A DNA stretch of 64,000 nt. It comes from Candidatus Obscuribacterales bacterium. Lineage in GTDB: Bacteria > Cyanobacteriota > Vampirovibrionia > Obscuribacterales > Obscuribacteraceae. Shown in pieces: positions 4,004-56,581 of the stretch. The translations under genes were made by a program, and so were the position numbers. The notes below the pieces were generated by a model. It was not told where the DNA came from and made no database searches. It worked only from the letters and a program-made list of their open reading frames with translations. The stretch is from NCBI GenBank assembly GCA_019750335.1, contig JAIEOQ010000012.1, positions 13,211 through 77,210 on the forward strand, in the 5' to 3' direction. Within the stretch, counting starts at the first letter, position 1, and every line of letters starts with the position of its first letter.

Positions 4004-4013
4004 TCGGGTCTCC

Positions 4014-16255: not shown

Positions 16256-17338
16256 TTATTTACCGCTGTACAATCGGTGGATTGCTACTTCAAGATTGTT
16301 TCGCGCTTCTGTCGAATTCGGATTCAATCTGAGTGAGAAACGATATTCGCTGACGGCGCCGACAATCTCTCCTGAAGTGTAGAGGGCAAAACCAAGATCG
16401 TTATGGGCGTTTGAGTTAAGCGGGTCGAGTAAAACCGCCTGCTTAAACTCCTGTGTCGCCTTTGTTAATTCGCCGCTTTGAAACAGGCAGCGACCGAGGA
16501 TCAGATGGCTGTCGGGCGAATTTGGACTTAAGAGCGCGGCCTGACGAGCGGTACGCATGGCCGTTTGTTTATCGCCTGCTCTCAAAAGAGCGTTGCTTAA
16601 GGCAATTTGCGCTCTTGAAAGTCCGGCATCAAGAGATACGGCTTGTCGTGCCGCTTGCATCGCTCCAAGCGGATCTCCTGCAGCTAGAAGAGATTCGGAA
16701 AGTGATGACAATGCTTCGGCTGATTGATTGAGAGCAATGGAGCGTCGGTATTCATTGATCGCTTCGTTCAAGTTGCCCCCGTGAACCAAAGATTCTCCGA
16801 AAATAAAATGAATATCGGCCGAGTTAGGATTGAGTTCGAGCGCTCTTCTGAAATGCTGGAGCGCTTCCATGTGCATACCGTTAAATTCCAGCACTTTGCC
16901 GAGCTGGGTATGAATGGCCGGGCTTTGCGGATTAAGGTTGAGAGCGGTATTTAGTTCTCCGGCAGCACCTTTTAAATCGCCGAGCATATACAAATAAGTT
17001 CCGCACTTATAACGTAAAAAAGCATCTTGCGGCGAATCAGTAATTTGACGCCGCGTTTTGATAATCATTTCGCCCAGTTGCTTTAAATCACAAGGTTGCT
17101 TGTCCAGCAAAAGGAGTTTTATGTATTCCTGATCATGGGTGGTATTGCCAACGGTGCTGACAGCGGTGGTTGTCGTTTCCGCGTCTTTGACAAAGCTGGT
17201 CTTGGAAACCTGCGGTGTTGCTCTCTTGACCTCCGGCGCTTTGCTTTTGCCCGAGACAGTCGTACCGGCAAAGACCGGACAGGTATATGATAAGTACAAT
17301 CCTAAAGCCAGTGCTTTTAGACGACGATAGTTGAACAT
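16256..17338 (-). CDS. secreted TPR-repeat protein (possible secretin pilotin or assembly factor)
   Basis: It contains many 34-aa TPR units (for example AEALSSLSESLLAAGDPLGAMQAARQAVSLD). I moved the start to the ATG at 17338, giving the signal peptide MFNYRRLKALALGLYLSYTCPVFAG and removing the overlap with hemW. Confidence 0.7.
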   Translation of the reverse strand: MFNYRRLKALALGLYLSYTCPVFAGTTVSGKSKAPEVKRATPQVSKTSFVKDAETTTTAVSTVGNTTHDQEYIKLLLLDKQPCDLKQLGEMIIKTRRQITDSPQDAFLRYKCGTYLYMLGDLKGAAGELNTALNLNPQSPAIHTQLGKVLEFNGMHMEALQHFRRALELNPNSADIHFIFGESLVHGGNLNEAINEYRRSIALNQSAEALSSLSESLLAAGDPLGAMQAARQAVSLDAGLSRAQIALSNALLRAGDKQTAMRTARQAALLSPNSPDSHLILGRCLFQSGELTKATQEFKQAVLLDPLNSNAHNDLGFALYTSGEIVGAVSEYRFSLRLNPNSTEARNNLEVAIHRLYSGK

Positions 17339-17373
17339 GCCGGCATAAACTCCAAGCGTGAACGCGAGAAAAG

Positions 17374-18495
17374 ATGGCTGAATCCGCCTACATACATATA
17401 CCATTTTGCGCCCATAAGTGCGATTTCTGTGATTTCGCCGCTTTTGCCGGACTGGATGATTTGGCTCTTGAATATTGCCAAGTTGTTGCTGCTGAGATTA
17501 AGGAACGGAACCGGAGCAAGCCTAACGCCGCCCCTTTGCGTACTTTGTTTTATGGCGGCGGTACTCCCGGCTATATCGCACCTTCTACCTTGAAAGTTGT
17601 TCATGATGCTGTCCGTGAGGAGATCGGATTAATTGACGGGGCTGAAGTTACTCTGGAAACTACGCCTAAAAGCGTCACTGCTGAAAAAGCCGAACAATGG
17701 CTTTCTATGGGAATTAATCGTATTTCTATCGGCGTTGAGTCCATGCAGGATCATGAACTCCAGGCTATGGGTCGAGAGCACAAACGTGAGGAATGTATTG
17801 CTGGTATTAATGCCGCCAGATTAGGCGGTTATGAAAATATCGCTTTTGATCTGATGTACGGCTTGCCGGAGCAAACTTTGGAATCTTGGCAGGAAACTCT
17901 GGAATCTTTGCTTGCGCTTAAGCCCAAACATTTATCGGCTTATGGGCTGACGATCGCCCAAAATTCACCTTTGCTTTTGCGTTATCCCAAAGATTCACCA
18001 AGTTACCCCAATGAAGATACTTTTGTTCAGATGTATGAAACTCTGGTTAGCACATGTGCAGCTTACGGTTTAGAGCAATACGAAATAGCTAACTTTGCCA
18101 TTCCCGGTTATGAAAGCCGGCACAATTTGACTTATTGGCGTAATCATCCGTATTTAGCTTTCGGTGTCAGTGCTCATCGTTATGTGGATGGTGTGCGCAG
18201 CTCCAACTTTCGTTCCTTGAAGCATTACATGCGCGATTATTTAGGCGATGAAACTCGGGAAGAGATAGATCACTTGTTGCGAATGAAAGAAGGGATTATG
18301 CTCGGTTTAAGATTGAGAAAAGGGATCGATCTTGAGGAGTTTACGCGTACTTACAATGTAAACATTGAAGAGCGATACGCTCAGCAGTTGCATGAACTTT
18401 CAGCTGGAAATTTCATTGAGCTTGAGGGTAAATTTCTGCGCTTAAGTCAAAAGGGCGTGCTCGTAAGCAATACTGTGCTTACGGAATTCATTTGA
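17374..18495 (+). CDS. hemW: radical SAM haem chaperone HemW (oxygen-independent coproporphyrinogen oxidase-like)
   Basis: It has YIHIPFCAHKCDFCDF (CxxxCxxC) followed by an HemN_C-like tail. Its 373-aa length fits HemW rather than HemN. Confidence 0.85.
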   Translation: MAESAYIHIPFCAHKCDFCDFAAFAGLDDLALEYCQVVAAEIKERNRSKPNAAPLRTLFYGGGTPGYIAPSTLKVVHDAVREEIGLIDGAEVTLETTPKSVTAEKAEQWLSMGINRISIGVESMQDHELQAMGREHKREECIAGINAARLGGYENIAFDLMYGLPEQTLESWQETLESLLALKPKHLSAYGLTIAQNSPLLLRYPKDSPSYPNEDTFVQMYETLVSTCAAYGLEQYEIANFAIPGYESRHNLTYWRNHPYLAFGVSAHRYVDGVRSSNFRSLKHYMRDYLGDETREEIDHLLRMKEGIMLGLRLRKGIDLEEFTRTYNVNIEERYAQQLHELSAGNFIELEGKFLRLSQKGVLVSNTVLTEFI

Positions 18496-31917: not shown

Positions 31918-34848
31918 TTGTTGGATCAATCCGGCTTTCAGCCGGCGGCTCGCAAGGGTATAGTTTTGGCTTCTCATAAAAACAACGGTTCACTTTCCGA
32001 TTCCATAGTTGTGCGTGGCGCGCGCCAGCACAATCTAAAGAATGTAACTGTTTCCATTCCGCGCAATAAACTGGTTGTGATTACCGGCGTCAGCGGTTCG
32101 GGCAAATCATCTCTGGCTTTCGACACGGTTTTTGCCGAAGGACAAAGACGTTATGTTGAGTCGCTATCGGCTTATGCCAGGCAGTTTCTCGGTCAACTTG
32201 ATAAACCGGATGTTGAAGCGATTGAAGGTTTGAGCCCGGCTATTTCAATCGATCAAAAATCGACCAGTCACAACCCGCGCTCGACTGTCGGAACGGTCAC
32301 CGAAATTTATGACTATTTGCGTTTGCTTTATGCACGGATCGGCATTCCACATTGTCCGCAGTGCGCTCAAAGAATCAACCCGCAAACAATCGATCAAATT
32401 GTCGATCAAGTTTTGTCCTTGACTGAAGGCACCAAAATTCAAGTTATGGCACCGCTGGTGGTAGGACGCAAAGGCGAATATCAGGCGCTTTTCCAGGAAC
32501 TGCGCAAAGAAGGCTTCGCCAGAGTGAGAGTTGACGGCGAAGTACTCTTATTGGAAGACGAGATCAAGCTCGATAAAAATCGCAAGCATTCAATTGACTT
32601 GGTAATCGATCGTCTTGTAGTTAAAACCAATATCCGTTCGCGTTTGGCTGATAGTGTGTCGCTCGGATTGAAATGGGGCAAGTCGAACATCCTTATTGAT
32701 GTGATTGGCGAAAAGGAACTGCTCTTTTCCGAGAATTTCGCTTGTGCCGCTTGTAACTTAAGCTTCTCTGAAATAGCACCGCGAACTTTCAGCTTCAATA
32801 GTCCTTACGGCGCTTGTGATGCTTGTCACGGTTTAGGTTGTACTTTCGAGATTGATCCGGCTCTGGTTGTACCCGACGCTAAAAAAAGTTTGAGCGACGG
32901 AGCGATTTATCCCTGGTCGAAAACGGGCAACTCTTATTACGAGCAAATTTTGTCCTCGGTGGCAAAGCATTATAAATTCAGTATGGATACGCCTTTCAAT
33001 AAGCTGTCCAAAGCGCATCAAGATGTGATTTTTTACGGTTCAGGCGAAGAAAATCTCAAACTTACCCACGACTCTTTCGACGGCAAAGAGGTCTGGCAAT
33101 ATCATAAACCGTTTGAAGGAGTGCTGACCAATTTAAAGCGCCGTCATGAAGAATCGCAATCGGATCGTGTGCGCGGCGACATCGAAAATTATATGAAAGA
33201 GATGTTCTGCGCTTCTTGCGGTGGTGCACGTTTGAAGCCGGAAGCGCTTTCGGTAAAAGTCGGCGAACTTTCAATCGCTCAATTTTGCTCGATGCCTGTT
33301 GATCAAGCTTTGGCAAAAGTGCATTCACTACCCGCTAAATTCAGCGAACGTGAAAAAATGATTTCACACCAAGTGCTGAAAGAGATTGAAGCGCGCTTGC
33401 GCTTTTTAGTTGATGTCGGACTAAACTATTTGACCCTCGATCGCCGGGCAACCACTTTATCCGGTGGTGAAGCGCAACGGATCAGGCTGGCCACTCAAAT
33501 CGGCTCTGGACTTTCCGGTGTACTGTATGTGCTTGATGAACCTTCAATCGGTTTGCACCAACGCGATAATCATCGCTTAATCGCTACACTGAAACGTTTG
33601 CGTGATTTAGGTAATACGTTACTTGTTGTCGAACATGATGAAGACACTATTGCTGAAGCGGATTGGATAATTGATATTGGCCCGGGCGCCGGTTTGCATG
33701 GTGGACACTTAGTTGCCGAAGGCAGCTTTGAAGATATTTGTGCCGCTAAAGAATCTTTGACCGGTGCGTATCTTTCTAAACGCAAAGAGATTCCGGTTCC
33801 GAAAACCAGACGCAAAGGCAACGGCGAAGCAATTAAAGTTACAGGCGCCAGCTTGAACAACCTGAAAAATATTGCCCTTGAAATTCCTTTGGGTAAATTT
33901 GTCGCTGTTACCGGTGTTAGCGGTTCAGGTAAAAGCACTTTAGTTAATGACTTGATTTATACCTATTTGCGTCATGCGCTGCACGGAACGGTCGCCGCGC
34001 CGGCGGGGCTGAAAAGTCTTGAAGGAATCGAGCATATCGATAAAGTAATCGATATCGATCAATCGCCAATCGGACGGACTCCACGTTCAAATCCGGCGAC
34101 TTATACCGGTCTTTTCGATGTTATTCGCGAAGTCTTTTCTATGACTATTGAAGCTAAAGCGCGCGGTTATATGCCCGGACGTTTTTCGTTCAATGTTAAA
34201 GGTGGGCGTTGTGAGGCTTGTCGCGGCGAAGGTATGAATGAAATTGAAATGAATTTCTTGCCTTCGGTTTTTGTTACTTGTGATGTTTGTAAGGGTGCTC
34301 GTTATAATCGTGAAACTTTAGAAGTTAAATTCAAAGGACGTTCCATCGCCGACGTGCTTGAAATGACAGTTGAAGAAGCGCTTGAATTTTTCAACAGTAT
34401 TCCTAAAGCTGAATCGAAGCTGCAAACTTTGCACAGTGTCGGTTTGGACTATATAAAACTGGGGCAACCGGCAACAACTTTATCAGGCGGCGAAGCCCAA
34501 AGAGTAAAGCTTGCCGAACAGTTATCCAAGCGTTCAACCGGACGTACGATTTATATCCTGGATGAGCCGACAACCGGACTTTCATTCCATGATGTGGACA
34601 AACTGCTTTCGGTGCTTAATCGTCTTGTCGATTCAGGCAATACGGTTCTTATAATCGAGCACAATCTTGATGTGATTAAGCAAGCTGATTGGATTATCGA
34701 TTTAGGACCGGAAGGCGGAGATAAGGGTGGGCAGATAGTTGCTCTTGGCAGTCCGGAAACAATCGTAAGTGTTGGCGAATCATATACTGGGCAATATCTT
34801 AAAGATTATTTGGCGACGCCGCAAATTGCCGGACAGCGCTTCAGGTGA
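31918..34848 (+). CDS. uvrA: excinuclease ABC subunit A
   Basis: It contains [12 protein letters not shown], two ABC modules ([14 protein letters not shown] and [10 protein letters not shown]; LSGGEAQR twice) and zinc modules. The true start is uncertain, because only TTG candidates lie upstream of the conserved core. Confidence 0.95.
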
Positions 34849-34925
34849 ACTTTATCTGGGTATGCTTCTCTTGGTGCTCATGGTCTGCTAAATTTGTCAT
34901 GACTTAAAACCGTAGGTTTTCACTA

Positions 34926-35453
34926 GTGCCAGCTCGGAACGGTAAAGTAAAAGACAAAACACCGGAAAAGCCGCCGGAGACGGAAGCTCACCTTGAACCG
35001 GTATATGAGAGCCTGCGTAAAAAAGGTCACCGCATAACCGCTCAGCGTGAGACCATTCTTGAAATCTTTCGCCAGCAGGATCATGGTACCCATCTTTCTG
35101 CCGAAGAGCTTTACACCATTCTTTCCTCCCGTGGCTTGAATGTCAGTCTGGCAACTACATATCGAACCCTGAAGCTTTTATCTCAGCTCGGTCTTTTGCG
35201 CGAGTTGGATTTTGCTGAAGGGCATAAGCACTACGAGCTTAAACAAGACAAACAACCGCACCAGCACATTATTTGTCTGGGTTGCAATACGGCACTGGAG
35301 TTTGAAGACCATTTTTTGGAAGAAGCCGGGCAAAAGATAGGCGCCCGCTATAATTTTGAGGTTATTGACGCTCAATTCAAAATCTTTGGCATGTGCCCCA
35401 ATTGTCGTGAGACGCAAAAGCCAGGTGGGCGTCCGAACAAAATGTCCAAATAA
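34926..35453 (+). CDS. Fur-family metalloregulator (Fur/Zur/PerR type)
   Basis: It has a winged helix (RITAQRETILEIF...HLSAEELY...ATTYRTLKLL), the HxH region HQHIICLGCN and a second CxxC (CPNC). It has a GTG start and a basic N-terminal extension of about 30 aa. Confidence 0.8.
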   Translation: MPARNGKVKDKTPEKPPETEAHLEPVYESLRKKGHRITAQRETILEIFRQQDHGTHLSAEELYTILSSRGLNVSLATTYRTLKLLSQLGLLRELDFAEGHKHYELKQDKQPHQHIICLGCNTALEFEDHFLEEAGQKIGARYNFEVIDAQFKIFGMCPNCRETQKPGGRPNKMSK

Positions 35454-45434: not shown

Positions 45435-45920
45435 ATGTTCTACAACAGAATTGCACGTGAATTTTCATCCGAAAACGGTTTCTTTCGCGGCTTTAGCCAT
45501 GAAATGCCGCTGACCAACCGCCTGGAAGGAACTTGCGTTCCGGCCGACATTTTGGAAACAGACGAGCAATTCATCATCGAATTGGCTTTGCCCGGTGTTG
45601 TTGTTGACGATGTTCAAATAAAAATGGAAGGCAGCTTGCTTCATATTGAAGCTAAACGCACTCCGGTTTTATTTGAAGAAAGAGCTACTTTTCTGAAAAA
45701 AGAATTGCCTGCTCATTTTATGTATCGTAGCTTTGAATTTGAATGCCCGATAATCGCCGAACAAATTGAAGCTCGTTTGGAGCGCGGTATTTTGTATATC
45801 AGCATTCCTAAAGTTGAAGCTGCTTTTCGCATTCCGGTTACAGGCGGCATGATTGAAAGTCACATGTCCAATACGGTCAAAACTCGTGTTGCCAGCAAAC
45901 ATGATGTAGCCGTTAAATAA
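45435..45920 (+). CDS. Hsp20/alpha-crystallin small heat-shock protein
   Basis: It has an alpha-crystallin domain (PADILETDEQFIIELALPGVVVDDVQIKMEGSLLHIEAKR...RGILYISIPK). GGAGGA lies upstream. Confidence 0.9.
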   Translation: MFYNRIAREFSSENGFFRGFSHEMPLTNRLEGTCVPADILETDEQFIIELALPGVVVDDVQIKMEGSLLHIEAKRTPVLFEERATFLKKELPAHFMYRSFEFECPIIAEQIEARLERGILYISIPKVEAAFRIPVTGGMIESHMSNTVKTRVASKHDVAVK

Positions 45921-45976: not shown

Positions 45977-45988
45977 TAATGTTGCCAA

Positions 45989-46131
45989 GATTAAAAGATT
46001 ATGTGATCGAGTTAATTTAAGGGGCTTTATATTATTAAACGGGGATAATATTCAGGGTATGTTTTTTATCAAATAAATCGGGCTTGAAGCGAAGAACGTT
46101 CCGTTTTGTTTTGCCGAGGATTCAACCATAT
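45989..46131 (+). promoter_or_regulatory. conserved leader/promoter block upstream of TadG-like paralog 1
   Basis: It shares ordered blocks with 49694-49845: gattaaa, attatgtgat, taattt, ggcttt, ggggataatattc (which contains a -10-like gataat), aacgttccg and gagga-tcaaccat-tatg. The GAGGA lies 11 nt before the ATG. Confidence 0.4.
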
Positions 46132-49023
46132 ATGATCAATTCCAAGAATAGGTTCTTAAGAAGCATGACCGGGGGCTCCCTGGTACTTGTTGCTTTTGTC
46201 GGGATCGGTATAGTTTTTACCGTCTTTGCAATCGTATATATCTACAATCAACTCTTTACGCATCAAAGGGAAGCTCAAACAGCAATTGATGCGGCAGCGC
46301 TTGCTGTATCGAAAGAGATTTCTCAAGTGACTACTCAAGATCCCTATCTTGGTTGGGTTGGAGTTTGTGATGGCTTCCAGCCGAACATTCTTCAGCAGCA
46401 ACCGGTGTACGGTATTAACACCGTAATCGGACGGGCGCGGCTAGATAATGTTATTTCTAGAGCGTTAAATAATAACGATATGACTCTGCTGGCAAACCGT
46501 GATTCGTTGCAATCGGCGGCAGTGGCTAATTCCTTACGGACAATTTTAACCACTGCTTCGGCTAATGGCGTATTGCGTTATGCAAAACCAGGACCTAATA
46601 ACGCACCGCAACAAGTGGTGCGCAATTTAGCTCAAGTTGCCGCCGATGCTTATAATGCTAACAACCTAAGGGCTGTTGGTAATACGCGCATAACTCCGGC
46701 TCAGGTGAGAGTGGAGCTTGGCTATGTGCAAGGTGATTCCAATGGCTTGACTGATATTCCGATTCCTAACCCGAACAATATGTCCGGCGGTGCTGAAACC
46801 GGAACCTTCTCCGCTCAAATAAATGGAGTTCGTTTTTATAAAGCCGGTATCAATATTCCGGTCCCCGGTTCAGCTAATCAATACGTATTCTCGTGCGTGA
46901 CTGCACAGCCACACTTAGCTGATAGGCAGTCTTTCACGACAACCGCCCCCAGCCCGTTGCTGGTTCCAACTGTGGTTAAAGTGACAATCAACCAACAAGT
47001 GGATCGTCCTAATCCGCAAGGCGGTCAAATGGCTTCCAACAAAATGGAAGTTGCTTGTGCGGCAGCCGGTGGACAACGAGTACCGACAACAGCCGGTATT
47101 TTACGTCTTGAATTTCCTCAGGGAATTCCTCAGGACGAAAGAAAAGGCAATCATTTTGCCAGCATTCGTTCCGTTTTGGATGCCGGAGCTGCACCATGGT
47201 CCGGGCGCGGTAATTTCTTTACCGCTCAAGGTGGTGCTTTTCCTGGACGTGGCGTAATCCGCCCATCCTCGTATCCTTCAAGCGTTCCACCTGCTGTTCC
47301 CGGTATGCCGGGCGTTACGCCGGCTACCTCGGCAACGCCAAGCCAGCTCACAGCATATTATGTTTATGATTGGTTGCGTAATGATTGCTTGCGTCCCAAC
47401 GTGCAATCGGTTGTTAATGCTTTGAGTACGCAACTGCGCACCACCACTGGTGCTACGGCTACAAGCAATGCCATTCAAATCGGTGATGCGTCCAAAATGA
47501 TGTTTACCGAATTCGGTAACTTCTTCATTCAAAAAGCTTGGGCACAAGGAGTTGGCGGTCAACGCTGCACCAATATTTGGGGCGGTTTGTTCGACTTAAT
47601 TCCGGACAGCACGACAGCTATGACTCGTGGGCGGGATCCTCGTTCACTGAACAATTTTGATGACGAACCAAATGCTTTCGTCGATCAAGCTTACGTATTC
47701 CGCATGCAAGCTTCCACTCCCCAGCAATTGGCTTGGGCTCCGCGCACGACAATGGCAACCGGTTTGGATCTTGAAACCGGGTGTCCGACGACTGCAGGAC
47801 CAAATCCCCAGCCAGCATATATTCTGATTGATCTGCGTGAGGACTTAGCGGCTGCGCAAAATAATGCTTTGCGCAACTACGACGTCGCGAAGCAAACATA
47901 TGATGCAAGCTTGGTGCTCATGAATCAGTACAACGTTCAGTTGAATACTCTTTCAAGACAAATGAGCGCTTTGTCGGCGCTGATGAGCCAGACACTTCCC
48001 GGCACGGCTTACAACGCCCTGGCCGCTCAATACAGAGTACTCTTGGCTCAGTTCAATTCAGTCAAAGCGCTCTTTGACGAAGAGAACCGCAAATTCACAA
48101 GAGCAACTGTCGTCATGAACAACGCCATCGAAACTATCGATTCCGTGAACGGCGTGATCGACAACATGCTTGCCATTTCGTCTTTAGGCATCAACCGTAC
48201 GGATCCGGCAGCGGCTTCCAGCACGGCTAGACCGAGACGTTATTTATTGGCCGGTAATGCTATTGCTTTTGCTCCGGCAGAAACAGTGGTGACCAGAGCT
48301 CAAATTGAGGGCACTGTCGCTTCCATTCCAACCGGACAAGCAAATAACGCTCCCGGTGATCGTAATTGGATCGGCAATGTCGTTGCTTTGTCTGGAAATC
48401 CTGGTGCGATTCAAAATCCGAATTGTCCTGTTTCAGTTCATCCTTCTTCTCAAGCCAGAAACTTCGAGCTTGTTACGATTGGTGATTCTAGTAACGGTAC
48501 AAGTGGTGGTGGAAGCGTACAGTTGACAGTCAGTGGTGAAGCACCAAGTAACGATGGTACGCACCAGACCTACAACCAAGCTAACGCTGCCAATTATCGT
48601 GCTCAAGCCAATAGCTTTGACTCGATAACCGGAGTATCAGCATTGCTTGAAGGACAAAGCCAATACCAGGCACTCAATATTTATCGTGTAGGTAGCGAGT
48701 GCGATCGTGATCCGGCAAATCCGCGTTTCCGTGTGGACTGGTCGATAATGGCACAAAACAATGTGACCAATTTCTCTAATCCAACAGTGGACGTGCGTGA
48801 TGAAAATACGCCTGGGAACAGGTTGGATTGTGCTAACGCCCAGCAGACCGGTAATCCGAATGAACGGGCTTGCCGTCATGAAGCTGTAAGAATTCAAGTA
48901 ACCTCACCTTTGCTTGAAGTGCCACCGCTTCTGACAGTGACACCGCCGCCGCCTCCGGTTGCGGCACCGGTACCGCCGACACCTCCGCCGCCGATGCCCC
49001 CGCCGCCACGCCGTAGCCACTAA
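46132..49023 (+). CDS. giant TadG-like membrane-anchored protein, paralog 1 (963 aa from the ATG at 46132), with a polyproline C-terminus
   Basis: The N-terminus MINSKNRFLRSMTGGSLVLVAFVGIGIVFTVFAIVYIY...QREAQTAIDAAALAVSKE resembles the TadE/G-like Flp-pilus assembly N-terminal domain. I do not recognise the remaining roughly 880 aa. The C-terminus is PPPPPVAAPVPPTPPPPMPPPPRRSH. The start was chosen because the ATG and its GAGGA are conserved in both copies. Confidence 0.7.
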   Translation: MINSKNRFLRSMTGGSLVLVAFVGIGIVFTVFAIVYIYNQLFTHQREAQTAIDAAALAVSKEISQVTTQDPYLGWVGVCDGFQPNILQQQPVYGINTVIGRARLDNVISRALNNNDMTLLANRDSLQSAAVANSLRTILTTASANGVLRYAKPGPNNAPQQVVRNLAQVAADAYNANNLRAVGNTRITPAQVRVELGYVQGDSNGLTDIPIPNPNNMSGGAETGTFSAQINGVRFYKAGINIPVPGSANQYVFSCVTAQPHLADRQSFTTTAPSPLLVPTVVKVTINQQVDRPNPQGGQMASNKMEVACAAAGGQRVPTTAGILRLEFPQGIPQDERKGNHFASIRSVLDAGAAPWSGRGNFFTAQGGAFPGRGVIRPSSYPSSVPPAVPGMPGVTPATSATPSQLTAYYVYDWLRNDCLRPNVQSVVNALSTQLRTTTGATATSNAIQIGDASKMMFTEFGNFFIQKAWAQGVGGQRCTNIWGGLFDLIPDSTTAMTRGRDPRSLNNFDDEPNAFVDQAYVFRMQASTPQQLAWAPRTTMATGLDLETGCPTTAGPNPQPAYILIDLREDLAAAQNNALRNYDVAKQTYDASLVLMNQYNVQLNTLSRQMSALSALMSQTLPGTAYNALAAQYRVLLAQFNSVKALFDEENRKFTRATVVMNNAIETIDSVNGVIDNMLAISSLGINRTDPAAASSTARPRRYLLAGNAIAFAPAETVVTRAQIEGTVASIPTGQANNAPGDRNWIGNVVALSGNPGAIQNPNCPVSVHPSSQARNFELVTIGDSSNGTSGGGSVQLTVSGEAPSNDGTHQTYNQANAANYRAQANSFDSITGVSALLEGQSQYQALNIYRVGSECDRDPANPRFRVDWSIMAQNNVTNFSNPTVDVRDENTPGNRLDCANAQQTGNPNERACRHEAVRIQVTSPLLEVPPLLTVTPPPPPVAAPVPPTPPPPMPPPPRRSH

Positions 49024-49044
49024 GCATGTGGTGATTGATTGAAA

Positions 49045-49078
49045 CTCAAGGCTCTCGGATTCCTCCGAGAGCCTTGAG
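49045..49078 (+). terminator. conserved 15-bp hairpin after paralog 1 (attenuator or processing site; no U-tract)
   Basis: The arms are ctcaaggctctcgga and tccgagagccttgag, with a ttcc loop. The stem core aaggctctcgga recurs after paralog 2. Confidence 0.35.
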
Positions 49079-49128
49079 CAAAATTAGAAAGCTAAGGCCT
49101 TACATATACATATAAAAGGATTCAGTTA

Positions 49129-49656
49129 ATGGCTAAAAATGACACGATGTTTGCTCTTCTTCTTTCTTTGCTTGCTTTTACGCCTGTCGCTTATGCCGAT
49201 ACCCAAGCTGAGCTTATTAAGAAAGTAGAGCAGTTGCGCAACAGTGCTTTTGATTCGCAGAGCTCGGGCAATAATTCCGGAGCTTTAGCAGCCATATCTC
49301 AAGCTGGCGATCTGGTTTTAAGCCGCGAATTTACCGATCCGAGCAAACCGGTTGTAGAAACTATGGTGATTACTCAACTTACTACTATTCATGGCTCGGC
49401 TTTTCAGAAACGTGATTGGGCAGTTGCTGAAGCAGCTTTGCGCAAAAAAATAAGTTTCATGGAAGCTTGTCATAAAGACAACACGGATGATTATCAGGCA
49501 TCCTTGCGCTCTTTAAATATGGTTTTGCGCGCACAAAAAAAATCTACCGAAGCCTCAGTCATAAAACCAAAGATGAAACCACTAAGCTTCCGTAAGGAAG
49601 ACAAAATACAGGTTAATCTTCAAGCCGAGGCGTCGCGAGAAAATAACAAGAAGTAA
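49129..49656 (+). CDS. small secreted helical protein, paralog 1 (175 aa)
   Basis: It has a signal peptide (MFALLLSLLAFTPVAYA). It shares QLT.I.GSAFQKRDW...EAALRKKISFME...DDYQ.SLR.L...LRAQKKSTE with 54398-54982. Confidence 0.6.
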   Translation: MAKNDTMFALLLSLLAFTPVAYADTQAELIKKVEQLRNSAFDSQSSGNNSGALAAISQAGDLVLSREFTDPSKPVVETMVITQLTTIHGSAFQKRDWAVAEAALRKKISFMEACHKDNTDDYQASLRSLNMVLRAQKKSTEASVIKPKMKPLSFRKEDKIQVNLQAEASRENNKK

Positions 49657-49693
49657 CCTCTGCTTGGCTTTCGGGAATCACGTACACGGTTTA

Positions 49694-49845
49694 GATTAAA
49701 TCATTATGTGATGGAGCTAATTTTTGTGGCTTTCTTACATTAAATGGGGATAATATTCCTAAGCTGTTCTTTGTACTCATAGAACTTCGGGTTTTTGGAG
49801 CGGGAAAAACGTTCCGATTTTGTATTGCTGAGGAATCAACCATTT
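49694..49845 (+). promoter_or_regulatory. conserved leader/promoter block upstream of TadG-like paralog 2
   Basis: This is the counterpart of 45989-46131. The block ggggataatattc lies at 49746-49758, and GAGGA at 49830-49834 lies 11 nt before the ATG. Confidence 0.4.
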
Positions 49846-52800
49846 ATGATCACTCCCAAAAATAAGTTCATAAGAAGCATGACCGGGGGCTCCCTGGTAC
49901 TTGTTGCTTTTGTAGGGATAGGCATAGTCTTTGCTGTTTTTGCGATCGTATACATCTATAACCAGTTGTTTACGCATCAAAGAGAAGCTCAGACGGCAAT
50001 TGATGCTGCCGCTTTAGCAGTATCAAAAGAAATCTCTCAAGTTACTACTCAAGATCCTTTCTTAGGTTGGGTCGGTGTAACTGACGGTTTTCAGCCGAAC
50101 CTTCTTCAACAGCAACCGGTTTATGGTATCAATACCGTGATTGGGCGTGCCCGTTTGGATAATGTTATTTGTCGTGCTCTCAACAACAATGACATGACCT
50201 TATTGGCTAATCGTGATTCGCTCCAATCTGTTGCTGTGGCCAACTCCTTAAGAACGATTCTTAATAGTGTTGACACCAATGGTGGTACGTTGCGTTATAC
50301 AAGACCTGGTCCGAATAACGCACCGCAGCAGATAGTGCGTAATTTGGCTCAAATTGCTGCCGATGCATACAACAGTAATAATCTGCGAGCTGTCGGTAAT
50401 GCGCGCGTTACCCCGGCGCAAGTCCGAGTGGAGCTTGGTTATATCCAAGGTGATTCAAACGGTCTAACCGATATTCCGATTCCTAGCCCGAACAATATGT
50501 CCGGCGGAGCTGAAAATGCCAACTTCTCAGCTCAAGTAAACGGAGTTCGTTTTTATCGTGCCGGCGTGAATGTGCCGGTAACTGGTTCACCTAATCAATA
50601 TGTATTCTCTTGTGTCACTACACAACCACATTTGGTGGACAGGCAGTCTTTCGTTAACGCTGCCCCCAATCCCATGCTTGTTCCGACTGTGGTAAAAGTG
50701 ACGATCAATCAACAAGTGGATCGTCCTAATCCAACTGGTGGTGGCGATATGGCCGCCAACAAAATGGAAGTTGCTTGCGCCAGCGCCGGCGGTCAACGTG
50801 TACCGACCACGGCTGGTATTTTGCGTCTTGAGTTTCCGCAAGGAATTCCTCAAGATCAAAATCGTGGCAATCGCTTCGCTAGCATTCGTGCGATCTTGGA
50901 TGCCGGAAATAGTGCTTGGGCCGGAAGAGGTAATTTCTTTACCGCTCAGGGCGGAGCATTTCCCGGCAACGGTCGCATAGTAGCAGCTGCATATCCGCCA
51001 AGCATTCCGGCTGCAGGAGCTGGAGACCCGACGGCAACAGCAGCATCTGCGGCTACACCCAGCCAGTTGACGGCATATTATGTCTATGACTGGTTGAGAA
51101 ACGATTGTTTGCGTCCTAACGTTCAATCAGTAATTAATGCTCTGAATGCTAATCTGCGCACCACTACCGGTGCGACGGCCAACAGTCGCTCAGTGCAAAT
51201 TGGTGATGCTTCCAAAATGATGTTCACCCAATTCGGTGATTTCTTCATTCAAAAAGCATGGGCACAAGGTGTCGGTGGCGTGCAGTGCAACAACATCTGG
51301 GGTGGTCTCTTCGACCTTATTCCGGACAGCACTTCTGCCATGGCTCGCGGGCGCGATCCTCGTTCATTGAATAATTTCGATGACGAACCAAATGCTTTCG
51401 TCGATCAAGCTTACGTTTTCCGTATGCAAGCTTCGACACCACAGCAGTTGGCTTGGGCTCCGCGCAATACCATGGCTACTGGTTTGGATTTGAACACCGG
51501 TTGTCCTACAACTGCCGGTCCTAATCCGCAGCCAGCATACATCTTGCTCGATTTGCGTGAAGACCTTGCTGCAGCGCAAAACAATGCGATGCAGACATAC
51601 GACAATGCCAGATTGGTTTATGACTCAAGCTTGGCCTTGATGAACCAGTACACTGCTGAGATGAACTCATATTCGTCTCAAATGAGCAGCATCACGGCTC
51701 AAATGGCAGCGCTGAATAACGGTAGTATCGTTTATTTGGCTCAAGCCAGTGGTCAGTATGCCGCCGGTTGGTACTCAATTCAACTTGTACCTTTTGGTGG
51801 TGGCGGATTCTGGACCGGATGGGGTTTCTCCATTCAAATCATTCCTTTGCCAGGCTTTAACGGTCTGACACCAGGAGCGAATCTGCAAACCCTGACCGCT
51901 CAATATAACGAACTCTTGGCAAAATACAATGCTACTAAAGCTTTGTACGATCAAGAGAATCGTAAATATGCCAGAGCTTCGGTGGTCATGTTGAACGGTA
52001 TTCGAGTGATTGATTCGGCTAACGCCATCATCGACAATATGCTTGCCATATCGTCCTTAGGCATAAATCGTACCAATCCGCCGGCACCATCAAGCACTGC
52101 TCGTCCGAGACGCTATGTGCTTGGCGGTAATGCCATTGTCTTCTCACCCCCGGAAAATGTAATGACAAAAGCGCAGGTTGAAGGAACCGTCGCTCTTGTT
52201 TCGACCGGACAAATTGACAATGCACCAGGCGATCGTAACTGGCTTGGCAACGTACTTGTTTCCACAGGTAATCCCGGTGCCATCCAAACTCCAAACTGCC
52301 CGATTTCAGTTCGCCCATCGTCGCAAGCTCGTAACTTCGAGTTGGTTACGGTTGGCGATGCAAGCAACACCACCTCCGGTGGCGCAGTGCAATTGACCGT
52401 TAGTGGCGATGCTCCAACAAATGATGGTTCAGCGCCGACATACGATCAAGGGCAAGCAGCCAATTATCGTGCTCAAGCCAACAGCTTCGACTCGATAACC
52501 GGTGTTTCAGCATTGCTTGAAGGACAGAGCCAATATCAAGCGCTTAATGTCTATCGGGTTGCTAGCGATTGCGACCGTGATCCGGCTAATTCTCGTTTCG
52601 GAGTGGATTGGTCGGTCATGGCTCAAAATAACGTGACCAATTTCTCCAATCCAACGGTCGACGTGCGTGCTGAAAATACACCTGGCAACAGGTTGGATTG
52701 CGCCAGCGCGGCTCAGACCAATAATCCGAATGAGCGGGCTTGCCGCCATGAAGCTGTAAGAATTCAAGTTACCTCACCGTTGCTTGAAGTACCGCCTTTG

Positions 52801-52896
52801 TTGGTAGTTACTCCGCCACCTCCGCCAGTGGCAGCGCCGCCGGTACCACCAATACCGCCGCCGCCACCACCGCCGCCACCGCGTCGCAGCCACTAA
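49846..52896 (+). CDS. giant TadG-like membrane-anchored protein, paralog 2 (1016 aa from the ATG at 49846), with a polyproline C-terminus
   Basis: It has the same architecture as 46132-49023 and begins MITPKNKFIRSMTGGSLVLVAFVGIGIVF...QREAQTAIDAAALAVSKE. It ends ...IPPPPPPPPPRRSH. Confidence 0.7.
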   Translation: MITPKNKFIRSMTGGSLVLVAFVGIGIVFAVFAIVYIYNQLFTHQREAQTAIDAAALAVSKEISQVTTQDPFLGWVGVTDGFQPNLLQQQPVYGINTVIGRARLDNVICRALNNNDMTLLANRDSLQSVAVANSLRTILNSVDTNGGTLRYTRPGPNNAPQQIVRNLAQIAADAYNSNNLRAVGNARVTPAQVRVELGYIQGDSNGLTDIPIPSPNNMSGGAENANFSAQVNGVRFYRAGVNVPVTGSPNQYVFSCVTTQPHLVDRQSFVNAAPNPMLVPTVVKVTINQQVDRPNPTGGGDMAANKMEVACASAGGQRVPTTAGILRLEFPQGIPQDQNRGNRFASIRAILDAGNSAWAGRGNFFTAQGGAFPGNGRIVAAAYPPSIPAAGAGDPTATAASAATPSQLTAYYVYDWLRNDCLRPNVQSVINALNANLRTTTGATANSRSVQIGDASKMMFTQFGDFFIQKAWAQGVGGVQCNNIWGGLFDLIPDSTSAMARGRDPRSLNNFDDEPNAFVDQAYVFRMQASTPQQLAWAPRNTMATGLDLNTGCPTTAGPNPQPAYILLDLREDLAAAQNNAMQTYDNARLVYDSSLALMNQYTAEMNSYSSQMSSITAQMAALNNGSIVYLAQASGQYAAGWYSIQLVPFGGGGFWTGWGFSIQIIPLPGFNGLTPGANLQTLTAQYNELLAKYNATKALYDQENRKYARASVVMLNGIRVIDSANAIIDNMLAISSLGINRTNPPAPSSTARPRRYVLGGNAIVFSPPENVMTKAQVEGTVALVSTGQIDNAPGDRNWLGNVLVSTGNPGAIQTPNCPISVRPSSQARNFELVTVGDASNTTSGGAVQLTVSGDAPTNDGSAPTYDQGQAANYRAQANSFDSITGVSALLEGQSQYQALNVYRVASDCDRDPANSRFGVDWSVMAQNNVTNFSNPTVDVRAENTPGNRLDCASAAQTNNPNERACRHEAVRIQVTSPLLEVPPLLVVTPPPPPVAAPPVPPIPPPPPPPPPRRSH

Positions 52897-52993: not shown

Positions 52994-54388
52994 ATGAAAG
53001 CTGTTGACAAAGGATTTCAAATGAATCATTCACCGTCTTTGAAGCTTAATCTGCCGGTCTTATTCTCACTTTCAGTTGTGATGCTTTCTGGCTGTGCTGC
53101 CAACAAGCATCAGCTTACTGACGCGGATTTGAATGATCCGGCCAAAGTTCTTGGCAAGCCGATTGATGGACTGAATTCAAGCCAGTTGAATAAATATTGG
53201 CAAGGCGAAGCCTTATTCAAAAAAGAGTTTACTCCTGAGGAAGGTCTTGGACCTTTATTCAACGGCAAAAGCTGTTTTGAATGTCATGGGCAACCGCTGG
53301 TGGTTGGTGGCGAAGGTCGTGATAACTCAAGCACAAGTATTATGAACTATGCTCGCAGAGTGCCCGGTTCGGAAAAAGCAAAAAAACCTTTGAAAGAAGT
53401 GATTCAAGGGTTGAGAAAAATCGATGTTGATTTTTTCCTGACCCAGGGTGGTCCAAGCTTGCAGAAGCGAACGATCACAACCGAATTTCCGGCTAAGTTT
53501 CCGTTTGAATGTCAAATTGATGCCGAGCGAATGCCAATTGATGCTGAGTTGCAATCGAATCGGCATTCGCCGCCTTTATTTGGCGACGGTTTAATCGATC
53601 AAATTCCGGACGGACTGATTGCTCAACAAGCACTTGAAGAAAGAGCAACTAATCCGGCGCTTGCCGGTACGCCGATTTCAGCTGTGGACCGTTATTTTGA
53701 ATCAGCTCGTGCCGGACGTTTCGGTTGGAAAAATCAGCATGTGAATATGTTCAATTTCACTACCGGTGCTTTAAATATCGAAGTCGGGTTGACCACTTAT
53801 GCTAATAACACTGAAAACTCTAGCGATCCGTTAGGCGATAATCCGACTTGTATCCGTGCCTTCAATAAAGTCGGCAATCCTAATGACAAAGGTAAAATAC
53901 TGCTTGCTCTAACTTATTTCCAATCGCTTTTGGCACCGCCACCGCGCGGACCGATTAACGATCAAGTTAAAGCAGGCGAAAAAATATTTGAAAAATTGGA
54001 TTGTGCTTTTTGTCACAGACCAACTTGGAAAACCGGGCCGAAAGTCATGCTGCCGGATCCGGACAGTCCTTTGCCTTTAATCAACTATATTGAAATTAAG
54101 CCGATGGAGAATGTGGAGTTTCATCCGTATACCGATTTTCTTGTGCATGATATGGGACCGGAATTGGCCGACGGTATACCGCAGGAAGGGGCTCGTGGCG
54201 GTGAATGGCGAACTGTGCCATTATGGGGATTGCGTTTCAAAAAATTCCTCTTGCATGACGGACGGACAAGAGACATCCATGAGGCGATTTTGATGCATGG
54301 CGGCCAAGGGGAAGATTCAGCCAAACGTTATCAGGAATTGAATAGCAAAGATAAAGAAGCACTGCTTGCTTTCTTGAAGAGTTTGTAA
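52994..54388 (+). CDS. DUF1111-family di-haem cytochrome c lipoprotein (putative thiol oxidoreductase/peroxidase)
   Basis: It has a lipobox (VVMLSGC) and two CxxCH haem sites (CFECH, CAFCH). It also shows the characteristic GLGPLFNGKSCFECH and WRTVPLWGL blocks. Confidence 0.7.
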   Translation: MKAVDKGFQMNHSPSLKLNLPVLFSLSVVMLSGCAANKHQLTDADLNDPAKVLGKPIDGLNSSQLNKYWQGEALFKKEFTPEEGLGPLFNGKSCFECHGQPLVVGGEGRDNSSTSIMNYARRVPGSEKAKKPLKEVIQGLRKIDVDFFLTQGGPSLQKRTITTEFPAKFPFECQIDAERMPIDAELQSNRHSPPLFGDGLIDQIPDGLIAQQALEERATNPALAGTPISAVDRYFESARAGRFGWKNQHVNMFNFTTGALNIEVGLTTYANNTENSSDPLGDNPTCIRAFNKVGNPNDKGKILLALTYFQSLLAPPPRGPINDQVKAGEKIFEKLDCAFCHRPTWKTGPKVMLPDPDSPLPLINYIEIKPMENVEFHPYTDFLVHDMGPELADGIPQEGARGGEWRTVPLWGLRFKKFLLHDGRTRDIHEAILMHGGQGEDSAKRYQELNSKDKEALLAFLKSL

Positions 54389-54397
54389 AAGGAGAAT

Positions 54398-54982
54398 TTG
54401 ATGAGCAAAATCGGCAAACCAACAACGGCGTTTTTACTGATGCTTGCTTGCAGTGGTGTGCTGTCTGCCGCCTTTGCCGAAGGCGAAACAACATTGCAAA
54501 TGATCAAAAGAGTGGAGCGTCTACGTTCGGAAGCATTTAGTGCACAAAAAAACGGTGATAGCGCCCATGCTTTAGCACTACTTGAAGAAGCTTCTGATGC
54601 GGTACTCGATGACAAATACCGTGATCCGAACAAAGCTTTTGTCATTAACACAATGACCGCTCAGTTGACCGCTATTCAAGGATCCGCTTTTCAGAAGCGC
54701 GATTGGCGGACATCTGAGGCTGCTTTGCGTAAAAAAATAAGCTTCATGGAAAAAACCAACCAAGCTGATAGCAATGATTATCAATCGGCTTTGCGCTTTT
54801 TGGATATCACTTTGCGCGCCCAGAAAAAATCAACTGAAACGACAACTTTGCAAGCTAAGATGAAACCTTTGAATGCTGAAGAGAAGCATCATAACGTGAT
54901 GCCGGTTGCTTTCAAGAAAGATGCGGAAGATAAAGAAGCTGAGAAAAAGAGTCAGGCAAAAGGGCAGAATAAAGGCAGGTAA
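54398..54982 (+). CDS. small secreted helical protein, paralog 2 (194 aa)
   Basis: It has a signal peptide (AFLLMLACSGVLSAAFA) and is a paralog of 49129-49656. Confidence 0.6.
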   Translation: MMSKIGKPTTAFLLMLACSGVLSAAFAEGETTLQMIKRVERLRSEAFSAQKNGDSAHALALLEEASDAVLDDKYRDPNKAFVINTMTAQLTAIQGSAFQKRDWRTSEAALRKKISFMEKTNQADSNDYQSALRFLDITLRAQKKSTETTTLQAKMKPLNAEEKHHNVMPVAFKKDAEDKEAEKKSQAKGQNKGR

Positions 54983-55003: not shown

Positions 55004-55516
55004 TTGGCTTCTGTTTGTTTGTGCTTATTGCCGGTCCTGCAGCTGTCAATAATTATTTGTGCTTGGTTTTTTCTGACCATAGCTAAATCAAATTGCAACT
55101 GTCTTTCCGAAAAGATTGTTTTAGCACGCATGGCCTTTGAGCAAAATATTCATGCCACCGAGGTCTTTTTTGTTTTGCTCTTGCTTTTGGCAAGTTATAT
55201 GGTTTGGCGGTTAAAATGGACAGCCTACGGCTTTATCTGTCTTGTCTTGTCACTGCTTGTCGGTTGTTTCGTCTGGCAAAGCTATACCAGTTATGTACTG
55301 GTTGATGCTGATTCGGTACGTTGGTTGTCCATGCCGGTAACGACCCTGACGGCGGCTCCCTATTCCGAAATCTGCCGGGTTTGGGTCTCTCCTGTGGGCA
55401 CTTGGCGCTATGCTCAAGCTTTTATGTCCGGACTCGTTTTTTTTGCCCTACTGCAGTTGGTTGGTTGGCTATGGCGTAAACGACGTCTGGCCCTTAGTGG
55501 TTGCCCGACTGAATAG
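55004..55516 (+). CDS. hypothetical polytopic membrane protein
   Basis: It has three to four hydrophobic helices and no recognised motif. The TTG start from the track is uncertain; an alternative ATG lies at 55130. Confidence 0.35.
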   Translation: MASVCLCLLPVLQLSIIICAWFFLTIAKSNCNCLSEKIVLARMAFEQNIHATEVFFVLLLLLASYMVWRLKWTAYGFICLVLSLLVGCFVWQSYTSYVLVDADSVRWLSMPVTTLTAAPYSEICRVWVSPVGTWRYAQAFMSGLVFFALLQLVGWLWRKRRLALSGCPTE

Positions 55517-55588
55517 TTTCATTTGTATTAAATTTGGGGAATAACGATAATAGTGTTTGTTTCCCGCTCTTTGAGCACAAGTACGGTT

Positions 55589-56068
55589 ATGTTAAACGAA
55601 CGCTTACTAAGACTAAGACGCAATAAAAAAGGCACGCTGATGGAGCTGGGACCAGCTCTGATCATTGCGCTCATAGTTTTATTCGCCATGCTCAGTCTGG
55701 CTTTTCTTTTTGCCGGTGTGGCTACGGCTAACTATGCCTGCCAGCTTGCTGCTCGTGAAGGTGCTTCCGGGGGGTCGCGCACTAACATTGATCGTTTAGC
55801 ACGTACGGCAATAGTAAATGTGGTTAACGGACCTTTTGGGCAATTTGCCAGTCTGCAGTTTACTAATTTGCAAGTCAACATTTTCGAAGTCGGTCCGGGT
55901 GGTACTGAATTAGGAGTACCGGCGCCTACTGCCATTGATACTACTCGTACCTATCTGGTGCGAGTCCAATCGCCATATACAATTGGCGTTCCTTTCTGGG
56001 GGACTGTCAATGCGACCGCTACTAGCGAATGCTTTGTCGATAATCCGGAAGCTTTAGCCATACCATAG
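55589..56068 (+). CDS. TadE-like pseudopilin / pilus assembly protein
   Basis: The basic N-terminus is followed by G-TLMELGPALIIALIVLFAMLSLAFLFAG...AAREGA, in the TadE/TadF style. I prefer the ATG at 55589; the track start is the GTG at 55553. Confidence 0.55.
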   Translation: MLNERLLRLRRNKKGTLMELGPALIIALIVLFAMLSLAFLFAGVATANYACQLAAREGASGGSRTNIDRLARTAIVNVVNGPFGQFASLQFTNLQVNIFEVGPGGTELGVPAPTAIDTTRTYLVRVQSPYTIGVPFWGTVNATATSECFVDNPEALAIP

Positions 56069-56077
56069 GAAAAAATT

Positions 56078-56581
56078 GTGCGTAAGAAATCAGGACAGCA
56101 GTTAGTTGAAGTAGCCATCGGCTTGATGGCTTTGGTCCCGATTTTTCTTTTCCTATACGATATTTGTGTTGTTTTTCTAGTAACTAATCTCAATGACGGT
56201 GTTGCCCGTGATGCAGCTCGCGCCGCATCGGCTACTGAGCCTGTCGGATTGCCTGGCGTTGGTACTTTTGCCTTAACGGCGGCAGCGCAAAATTTTGATC
56301 GAGCTAATCGAGTGGTTGGTCTTGCCCAACGTCGAGCTGGTGGCTATATCACAAACATTCGCATTGACCCCAATGTAAATTGGAGTTCAATCAATGTGCT
56401 AAATGCACCGGACCCTTTCATGGGCGGACTTTATAACGGAGATGTGCGAGTGCGTACTATTGTCACTTTCAATATACCTGTGACATTTGGTTTTTTACCG
56501 GCACAGCAAACTTTCAATGCTGATGCACGTTTTCCGCTTACGGCTCAACGCACAGGTACGGCTCGCCAATCGGTTAACTAA
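56078..56581 (+). CDS. TadE-like pseudopilin / pilus assembly protein
   Basis: VRKKSG-QQLVEVAIGLMALVPIFLFLYD...ARDAARAAS places Gly then Glu at +5, followed by a hydrophobic helix. This is the class-III/prepilin-like signature of TadE-family proteins. Confidence 0.65.
   Translation: MRKKSGQQLVEVAIGLMALVPIFLFLYDICVVFLVTNLNDGVARDAARAASATEPVGLPGVGTFALTAAAQNFDRANRVVGLAQRRAGGYITNIRIDPNVNWSSINVLNAPDPFMGGLYNGDVRVRTIVTFNIPVTFGFLPAQQTFNADARFPLTAQRTGTARQSVN

Follow-up and report, generated by a model that had tools for sequence, protein, structure and literature searches.

The tips of Tad and other type IV pili are now viewed as exchangeable functional "heads", among them vWA adhesins, lectins and the predatory Kil tips. 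In Streptococcus sanguinis, PilB (vWA) and PilC (lectin) are modular pilins of the type IVa class whose heads have known folds. Melainabacteria, the non-photosynthetic sister group of Cyanobacteria, have seen almost no experimental cell biology. Here we describe two giant TadG-like proteins, A and B, and their gene module in a 64,000-nucleotide stretch of DNA (the window; contig JAIEOQ010000012.1, assembly GCA_019750335.1) from an Obscuribacterales metagenome-assembled genome (MAG), and compare them with the described systems that they resemble. KilN of Myxococcus xanthus, a large tip pilin of the TadG-like kind, has two long helices, a beta scaffold and a non-vWA head of unknown fold; it has several paralogous tips, and the Myxococcus tip-gene clusters often lie away from the pilus machinery (PMC12075869). 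TadG of Aggregatibacter and CpaL of Caulobacter have, like A and B, a PF13400 leader and helix and TadE/F-type (CpaJ/K) partners (PMC12607857, PMC13533445). TadG/CpaL was recently equated with the top subunit GspK/PilK, and CpaL needs its extreme C-terminal beta-strand (PMC13533445). Enzymes of the DHOR (DUF1111) family are described from imelysin/EfeO-type iron-uptake operons, their activity being unproven (PMC3143127, bioRxiv 10.1101/072470).

The reading that we favour, and hold to be rather probable, is that A and B serve as alternative large pilins at the tip of a Tad-like filament and share one TadE/F pair, with a di-haem DHOR enzyme as a putative dedicated partner. It is built on the paralogy of A and B, the purifying selection on both, their Tad domain, the absence of a vWA domain, the motifs of two pseudopilins and a conserved module containing DHOR; from these we infer incorporation into a filament, a location at its tip, the use of A and B as alternatives and any contact between them and DHOR. 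Large tip pilins of the TadG-like kind that have a non-vWA head and come as paralogous tips are already known. Not described before are the head family and its confinement to Melainabacteria, the combination of a base with swappable heads, a polyPro-His tail and, most notably, the pairing with DHOR. Thus the novelty that an earlier first-pass annotation of the window had claimed for the two proteins holds for their bulk, which gave no match to a known family, and not for their class, which has a precedent in Myxococcus KilN from 2025 (PMC12075869).

Both genes lie on the + strand, A (963 residues) at 46132-49023 and B (1016 residues) at 49846-52896. The putative giant minor pilin A is 100% identical to K2W82_19690 at NCBI and B equals K2W82_19700 (P0002), both of which are labelled "hypothetical protein". 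The frame of A is open from a TTG at 46084 and that of B from a TTG at 49795; the likely starts are the ATG codons at 46132 and 49846, and the stops are at 49023 and 52896, respectively. A GAGGA ribosome-binding site is found 9-10 nt 5' of both ATG codons. At NCBI, A is started at Met12 (46165, 952 residues), which is 11 residues shorter, and B is annotated from the equivalent of Met1 (1016 residues). We preferred the long form for both because of the conserved leader and the GAGGA box. Both proteins are rich in Ala, Asn, Val, Pro, Thr, Gly, Ser and Gln and poor in Lys (1.2%) and Glu. The shared opening that had been read from the sequence is present in both translations: a basic leader is followed by a hydrophobic helix of ~25 residues and then by the string QREAQTAIDAAALAVSKE.

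The hydrophobic alpha-1 helix together with the QREAQTAIDAAALA motif forms the Tad N-terminal domain (A residues 15-58, 46174-46305; B 49888-50019; + strand), as seen with PF13400 (Tad, "Flp pilus-assembly TadE/G-like") and AlphaFold. B scored 22.5 bits, over the cut-off of 22.3 bits, and A scored 20.1 bits, 2 bits under it. Relatives carry precomputed PF13400 matches, a paralogue at locus L024 reaching 30.5 bits, and ten of the superfamily relatives checked in Pfam had a weak PF13400 match at most. This 47-residue N-terminal domain accounts for the only Pfam family match on A and B. Searched against Pfam and NCBIfam, the other ~900 residues are without any vWA or other family, NCBIfam returning only sub-threshold TadE-like matches; no VWA family of Pfam matched A or B at E up to 1. 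The D-x-[ST]-x-[ST] motif is absent from A and occurs in B as two chance matches (DPTAT, DASNT) outside any Rossmann-like segment. Among the Foldseek matches of the A model there was no Rossmann or vWA fold, neither phmmer nor a profile search matched the big protein to PDB sequences, and the full A model gave nothing at E <=0.001 against PDB and BFVD. With all these searches empty beyond coiled-coil hairpins, a known fold for the big protein was dropped. The first-pass annotation had proposed a TadE/G-like Flp-pilus N-terminus, the lack of a vWA module with its site for metal ion-dependent adhesion (MIDAS) and a bulk of unknown fold without a known family, and in all three points it was borne out. 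CpaL differs in being ~600 residues long with a vWA domain and MIDAS as its middle part. TadG/CpaL shares with A and B a middle region of large size and a beta-strand that is conserved at the extreme C-terminus, whereas A and B lie outside a tad/cpa operon and continue after the conserved strand with a 34-residue polyproline tail.

Compared with the prepilin peptidase site (G/A-X4-F/E), all 26 aligned family members have a conserved Gly after the basic stretch of the leader, and position +5 is Val or Leu, not Glu or Phe. As judged from these sequences, the missing Glu at +5 is compatible with a GspK-like top subunit. GspK/PilK (PilX) likewise has no Glu5 after the leader glycine, is the biggest minor pilin and carries an alpha-rich insertion in its pilin base; it would have the same role as A and B if our favoured model is right. 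A and B are, in contrast, three times larger, and neither gave a GspK (T2SSK) match in Pfam, in the PDB profile search or with Foldseek, the absent Glu5 being the one common trait in these comparisons.

Gene context is more explanatory for A and B than their sequence. Between 46 and 57 kb the + strand carries a co-directional run of Hsp20, A, sm175, B, DHOR, sm194, mem170 and two genes of ~170 codons. The last two, 2.7 kb downstream, encode putative TadE/F-like pseudopilins. Pseudopilin 1 (an open reading frame (ORF) of 171 residues, 55553-56068, +) has the signal G-x(3-4)-AEF and a weak match to the TadE minor pilin model NF041390 of NCBIfam (E 0.018). Pseudopilin 2 (167 residues, 56078-56581, +) has SG/QQLVEV (G-xxxx-E) and reached 21.1 bits with PF07811 (TadE) against a cut-off of 22.9. 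Both are class III signals (G-xxxx-E-[LIV] and G-x3-4-AEF) and are conserved in the orthologues, one family having [KR]G-QQLVE[VLI] (G-xxxx-E) and the other G-x(3-4)-AEF; behind each prepilin signal come a hydrophobic helix and an AAR[DE][AG]A motif, which reads AAREGA in the orthologues of pseudopilin 1. A tblastn search of the window proteins against all fetched loci located the big gene together with both small pilin genes in at least 13 loci, in varying order and orientation. Beside the distant short paralogues a regular expression found no TadE-like gene, with a pattern that also misses known members. The arrangement has the pilus tip layout of TadE/TadF/TadG (CpaJ/K/L, KilL/M/N). The two conserved pseudopilin genes lend support to the earlier suggestion of large surface or pilus-tip proteins. 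KilN is similarly a large TadG-like pilin encoded with two smaller TadE/F-like pilins (KilL/KilM; PMC12075869), with the difference that here two big genes share one such pair.

The pairing with DHOR, absent from the first-pass annotation, is the most unusual feature of the locus. The gene (52994-54388, +) encodes a di-haem lipoprotein of 464 residues (455 from the ATG at 53021) which matched PF06537 with 137.8 bits and has haem sites at residues 94 (CFECH) and 337 (CAFCH) and an LSGC lipobox. DHOR adjoins the big gene in the window and at L001, L003, L006, L008, L010, L012, L013, L014, L016, L017, L021 and L028, and it lies within ~5 kb of it in the window and 16 related loci, rearranged loci and paralogous modules included; its position varies between upstream, downstream and the opposite strand. 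Identity across loci falls from 66% to 28% for the big protein and is 50-79% for DHOR. When look-ups were started from members of the DHOR subfamily (37-43% identity), all three led to neighbouring TadG-like genes of 950-1040 codons (L027, L029 and L030). The paralogous module at L024 couples the 1280-residue TadG-like protein that has the 30.5-bit match with its own DHOR (37% identical), a TPR/HMA protein lying between them, and L029 has two TadG-like big genes plus HMA and TPR genes. DHOR is absent at the five distant-paralogue loci with enough flank (L004, L019, L020, L022 and L023), hence the pairing is a property of several clades and not of the whole superfamily. The nearest DHORs outside the group are ~780-residue Myxococcota proteins, and a linkage of DHOR with Tad outside Melainabacteria was rejected, as a Corallococcus DHOR locus had no Tad-like neighbour. 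The literature searched places DHOR/DUF1111 only in imelysin/EfeO-type iron operons with no pilin partner reported, and it yielded no description of a haem enzyme that is the dedicated partner of a type IV pilus tip complex.

Three further observations concern DHOR and its sister modules. Its anchor varies: the window clade has a lipobox (LSGC, LAGC, LASC), and distant members have an uncleaved-looking N-terminal hydrophobic helix and YVYAPDxGxxGGP. At L017 (12931-14080 of CP064963.1, a complete Melainabacteria genome) tblastn broke the DHOR match into two pieces (53-246 and 295-464 of the query), which points to a frameshift or deletion in that copy or to a fault in its assembly. The DHOR and TadG-like modules at L024 13839-15149 and L029 8442-10004 also contain a secreted HMA (CxxC) domain and a TPR protein, and these genes hint at a metal-related function.

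The chemistry of the enzyme opens other readings of the module. The AlphaFold model of DHOR (predicted local distance difference test (pLDDT) score 92.5) matched bacterial cytochrome c peroxidases (bCcPs), MauG, MbnH-like proteins and BthA with Foldseek at E 4e-6 to 2e-3. It is possible, if rather less than likely, that the module forms a redox-machine tip or a pilin-anchored periplasmic device, in which a giant pilin is obligatorily paired with a di-haem MauG/peroxidase-like enzyme; the enzyme would then build a protein-derived cofactor or cross-link in the head, or would be positioned, for example by the polyPro-His tail, for extracellular or periplasmic metal or peroxide chemistry. A refinement of our favoured reading, which we regard as quite doubtful, makes DHOR a MauG/MbnH-type maturase of the big pilin that would create a metal- or redox-active tip site by oxidative modification of conserved aromatic or Cys residues, for example to a Trp/Tyr-derived cross-link, a quinone or kynurenine. 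The big protein has invariant Trp and Tyr residues; candidate sites would be Y412/W414 of the invariant YDWL motif or W356/W746, and the C900/C914 pair and the polyPro-His tail may also bear on it. The DHOR model aligns with MauG/pre-methylamine dehydrogenase complexes and MbnH-like 6e1c as well as with bCcPs, but Foldseek cannot tell a peroxidase from a maturase, as E was similar for both with template modelling (TM) scores of 0.3-0.5. Co-occurrence is gene for gene across deep divergence and paralogous modules, and the HMA proteins of the sister modules would also fit a maturase; nevertheless, what joins DHOR to the pilin is gene linkage only, and invariant Trp and Tyr are common in any large fold. 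MauG with pre-methylamine dehydrogenase and MbnH with MbnP resemble the DHOR and A/B pair in that a di-haem enzyme of the bCcP fold is encoded beside a specific partner, while DHOR belongs to a separate Pfam family (PF06537, not PF03150) and a modification of its partner is not known.

A and B are 76% identical over 982 columns by BLASTP and 80% identical over 962 aligned codons in a global alignment. The alignment agreed with the first-pass annotation that the copies are collinear, apart from a 52-residue insertion in B. That annotation had also called them tandem. They are indeed two copies on the + strand, but not strictly adjacent, as the gene of a 175-residue secreted protein lies between them. 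The mostly synonymous third-position changes that it had seen were likewise recovered, with the 720 A/B differences distributed 165/99/456 over codon positions 1/2/3. By the method of Nei and Gojobori the nonsynonymous and synonymous divergences were dN = 0.138 and dS = 1.41 (dN/dS = 0.098), and omega was <=0.21 in every 100-codon window with measurable dS. Because of the low dN/dS and a dS of ~1.4, the duplication is old and both copies are constrained; A and B are under purifying selection and neither is a decaying pseudogene, just as had been proposed. Recent gene conversion between A and B was ruled out, since dS was >=0.86 in each measurable window. The nearest relative, P0003 at locus L028, is 65-66% identical to A and B and is the single big gene there, so that the A/B duplication postdates the split from the P0003 lineage. 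This single copy would also suit the idea that one of our two genes is redundant and drifting to loss. We give that idea virtually no credence, as it is refuted by the intact frames and the dN/dS values, and as each copy has its own conserved upstream region and ribosome-binding site. Tandem big paralogues were seen again at L020, L022 and L029.

The ~150 nt upstream of A (45980-46131, +) and their counterpart before B (~49685-49845) share 76% of their nucleotides, even though the genes themselves are almost saturated at synonymous sites. Both leaders contain the GGGGATAATATTC box, which is also present at -118 in the closest relative at L028, and a AACGTTCCG...TTTTG element ~35 nt before the start. 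A regulatory RNA was rejected because Rfam gave no match at E up to 1 in 43-58 kb and the folds were not significant (z-scores +0.67 and -0.92). Duplication of a promoter and 5' untranslated region is the likelier source of the conservation, and A and B each seem to have retained a promoter and leader of their own.

A word-indexed search for relatives yielded 27 clusters, and an exhaustive profile search 582 representatives (50% identity clusters), 337 of them below 1e-30. Full-length relatives have 900-1200 residues; many others have 530-750 and align only to profile positions ~5-330 or 5-430. Since these short relatives cover only the N-terminal part of the profile, we distinguish a conserved base of ~330 residues, common to the whole superfamily including the 530-750-residue paralogues (46132-47130 in A, +, from the profile search), from exchangeable heads. 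All named members were labelled Melainabacteria, Obscuribacterales or cyanobacterial MAG. When one genome was scanned for each GTDB species, 17 loci came to light, four of them in one MAG, and all in Obscuribacterales/Melainabacteria except one 3-kb contig binned to Chloroflexota; as two peptide motifs were used, this distribution is a lower bound. PLSDB plasmids gave no TadG-like relative in tblastn with the first 423 residues, and plasmid-borne relatives were dropped. The head family is apparently lineage-restricted. Behind the most distant full-length relative, P0026 (L004 358-5674; 24% identity), come two small genes and one for an HTTM-domain protein in the place of DHOR.

An AlphaFold2 model of A was built with 26 homologues (pLDDT 76.9, predicted TM score 0.71). 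It consists of a continuous helix at residues 10-63 (54 residues), a mixed alpha/beta region to ~560, a long helical hairpin (563-677; 47818-48162, +; pLDDT ~90) of two ~55-residue helices (563-618 and 624-677), a beta-rich part at 687-929 with a strand at 915-929, and a disordered proline tail. The hairpin is the sole part of the model with weak fold matches in PDB, all of them coiled-coil hairpins at E ~0.1. Its tip measures 11-67 residues over the 26 family members and is longest in B, where the aromatic/Gly-rich 52-residue insertion (51709-51864, +) of the A/B alignment is located. The tip is an indel hot spot, as would be expected of an exposed specificity element. A and B have ten Cys each, of which only C900 (96%) and C914 (100%) are conserved family-wide in the 26 sequences and C309 and C479 in ~80%. 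The last beta-strand, RHEAVRIQVTSPLLE, ranks with the best-conserved segments of the 26-member alignment and leads into the polyproline tail ...PPPPRRSH (A residues 915-963, 48874-49020; B 52744-52893; +; from alignment and model). C914 and P926 are invariant, Q922, T924 and H963 are conserved in >=90%, and 24 of the 26 members have [STGH]-His at the end of the tail. The last strand would fit the strand-addition role of the CpaL C-terminus, and the model, with its 54-residue helix, beta strands, two long helices and beta region, together with the tandem paralogues, matches the description of KilN; we counted both in favour of tip pilins. The likeness to KilN is drawn from its published description and includes a head with no vWA or PDB homologue, two long helices with a beta scaffold and the presence in one genome of several paralogous sets of tip genes, often at a distance from the machinery. 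The differences are the di-haem DHOR, the two small secreted/membrane proteins and the polyPro-His tail, features that have not been reported for Kil, and the host, an Obscuribacterales MAG with no known predatory lifestyle. PilB and PilC are similar in principle, being pilin modules fused to functional heads that fit only at a filament tip, and differ in their pilus class (type IVa) and in the known folds of their heads.

In the mechanism that we propose, the basic leader and the ~54-residue alpha-1 helix would anchor A or B in the inner membrane and subsequently in a filament core of the type IV (Tad-like) class. Above the helix would come the ~330-residue superfamily base and then a clade-specific head, composed of the hairpin with its variable tip and the beta domain. 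A or B would join the two TadE/F-type pseudopilins in a trimeric initiation or tip complex, with the big protein, lacking Glu5 like GspK/PilK, on top and its head exposed. Two diverged paralogues with one TadE/F pair could thereby provide two interchangeable tips with different hairpin ends. DHOR might carry out an oxidative maturation of the big protein, or redox or metal chemistry positioned by it.

Several results weigh against tip pilins. The Pfam scores of A and of both TadE-like proteins are slightly under the curated cut-offs, the N-terminal module matched neither a pilin nor GspK or PilX in Foldseek, and homology of A and B to KilN and CpaL was seen only in the N-terminal ~47 residues. 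The main objection is the lack of linked filament machinery: no T2SSE-type ATPase motif (Walker-A scan), TadB/C or prepilin peptidase was found within ~10 kb at ~30 loci, nor any Flp-like small ORF by regular expression in 42-58.5 kb of the window. Furthermore, apart from a distant secretin the 64-kb window contains none of the tad locus genes (flp, tadV/cpaA, rcpCAB, tadZABCD), and in Pfam scans of 20 other window ORFs this secretin, 30 kb away, was the only machinery part. Pilus machinery linked to the module was thus rejected by the Pfam, Walker-A and Flp scans.

The lack of linked filament machinery at ~30 loci would suit a periplasmic redox or metal module with no filament at all, in which the big proteins are bitopic inner-membrane proteins that use their TadG-like N-terminus only as an anchor and act in the periplasm with DHOR, joined in the sister modules by HMA and TPR proteins, to acquire iron or copper or to carry out peroxide chemistry. 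We consider this, the chief rival reading, unlikely. In its favour, DHOR is the best conserved gene of the module (50-79% against 28-66% for the big protein), secreted HMA (CxxC) and TPR proteins occur in the paralogous modules, and DUF1111/DHOR is otherwise known from imelysin/EfeO-type iron operons (PMC3143127, bioRxiv 10.1101/072470). The DHOR of the imelysin (IrpA/EfeO-like) operons is of the same family, PF06537 (PMC3143127), but the module has no imelysin, EfeU or DUF1513 gene and its constant neighbour is a TadG-like pilin. Moreover, it is not obvious what two conserved genes with canonical prepilin signals of the G-xxxx-E type would do other than in a type IV filament, the N-terminal helix of 54 residues and the Tad domain matches are pilin features, and remote tip clusters free of machinery are normal in Myxococcus (PMC12075869).

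The secretin (STN, Secretin_N), which lies beside a TPR protein (13859-16105, -, and 16256-17404, -), is the only type IV filament- or T2SS-like part of the window. Its place 30 kb upstream would accord with a secretion pseudopilus, in which the three pilin-like proteins cap a short endopilus like that of the type II secretion system (T2SS), pushing DHOR or sm175/sm194 to the cell surface with the big protein docking the cargo at the tip. Minor-pilin tips do dock cargo in T2SS and toxin-coregulated pilus systems (PMC12075869), and DHOR and sm194, either secreted or lipid-anchored, are always encoded together. Linked T2SS genes were not found, however, and distant DHOR orthologues, with their N-terminal membrane anchor and no cleavable signal, are a poor fit to released cargo, and we judge such a pseudopilus very improbable.

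The remaining genes of the run are small. The secreted proteins sm175 (175 residues, 49129-49656, +) and sm194 (194 residues, 54398-54982, +) are paralogues with 48% identity, neither with a family match. Homologues of sm194 occupy the same position after DHOR in L001, L010 and L028, and the small secreted protein therefore belongs to the module, its copy having been duplicated along with the big gene. The membrane protein mem170 (170 residues, 55004-55516, +) with a CNCxxE...LARxAFE motif is conserved in L001, L010, L028 and L008; it has no family match and is not recognisable as a prepilin peptidase. The run begins with Hsp20 (45435-45920, +), which has a terminator-like hairpin at its end. 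A pair of ORFs of 976 and 175 residues at 31918-35453 was dismissed as a third copy: the size pattern is alike, but the translation is unrelated and was read by eye, with no Pfam run, as a UvrA-type ABC protein. Elsewhere in the window, heptosyltransferase, LpxK and Kdo transferase genes stand in a row (1861-5270, -), and these lipopolysaccharide genes are consistent with a diderm, lipopolysaccharide-bearing envelope.

The locus adds a large uncharacterised head family to the tip pilins, with 582 clusters at 50% identity, no Pfam model past the first 47 residues and no match to a solved or viral fold. The ~330-residue base would be useful as a new protein-family model for annotating Melainabacteria genomes. 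The pairing with DHOR, accompanied by periplasmic HMA proteins in the sister modules, provides a testable lead to the function of DUF1111/DHOR and to redox or metal chemistry at a pilus tip. The module points to a lineage-specific pilus tip.

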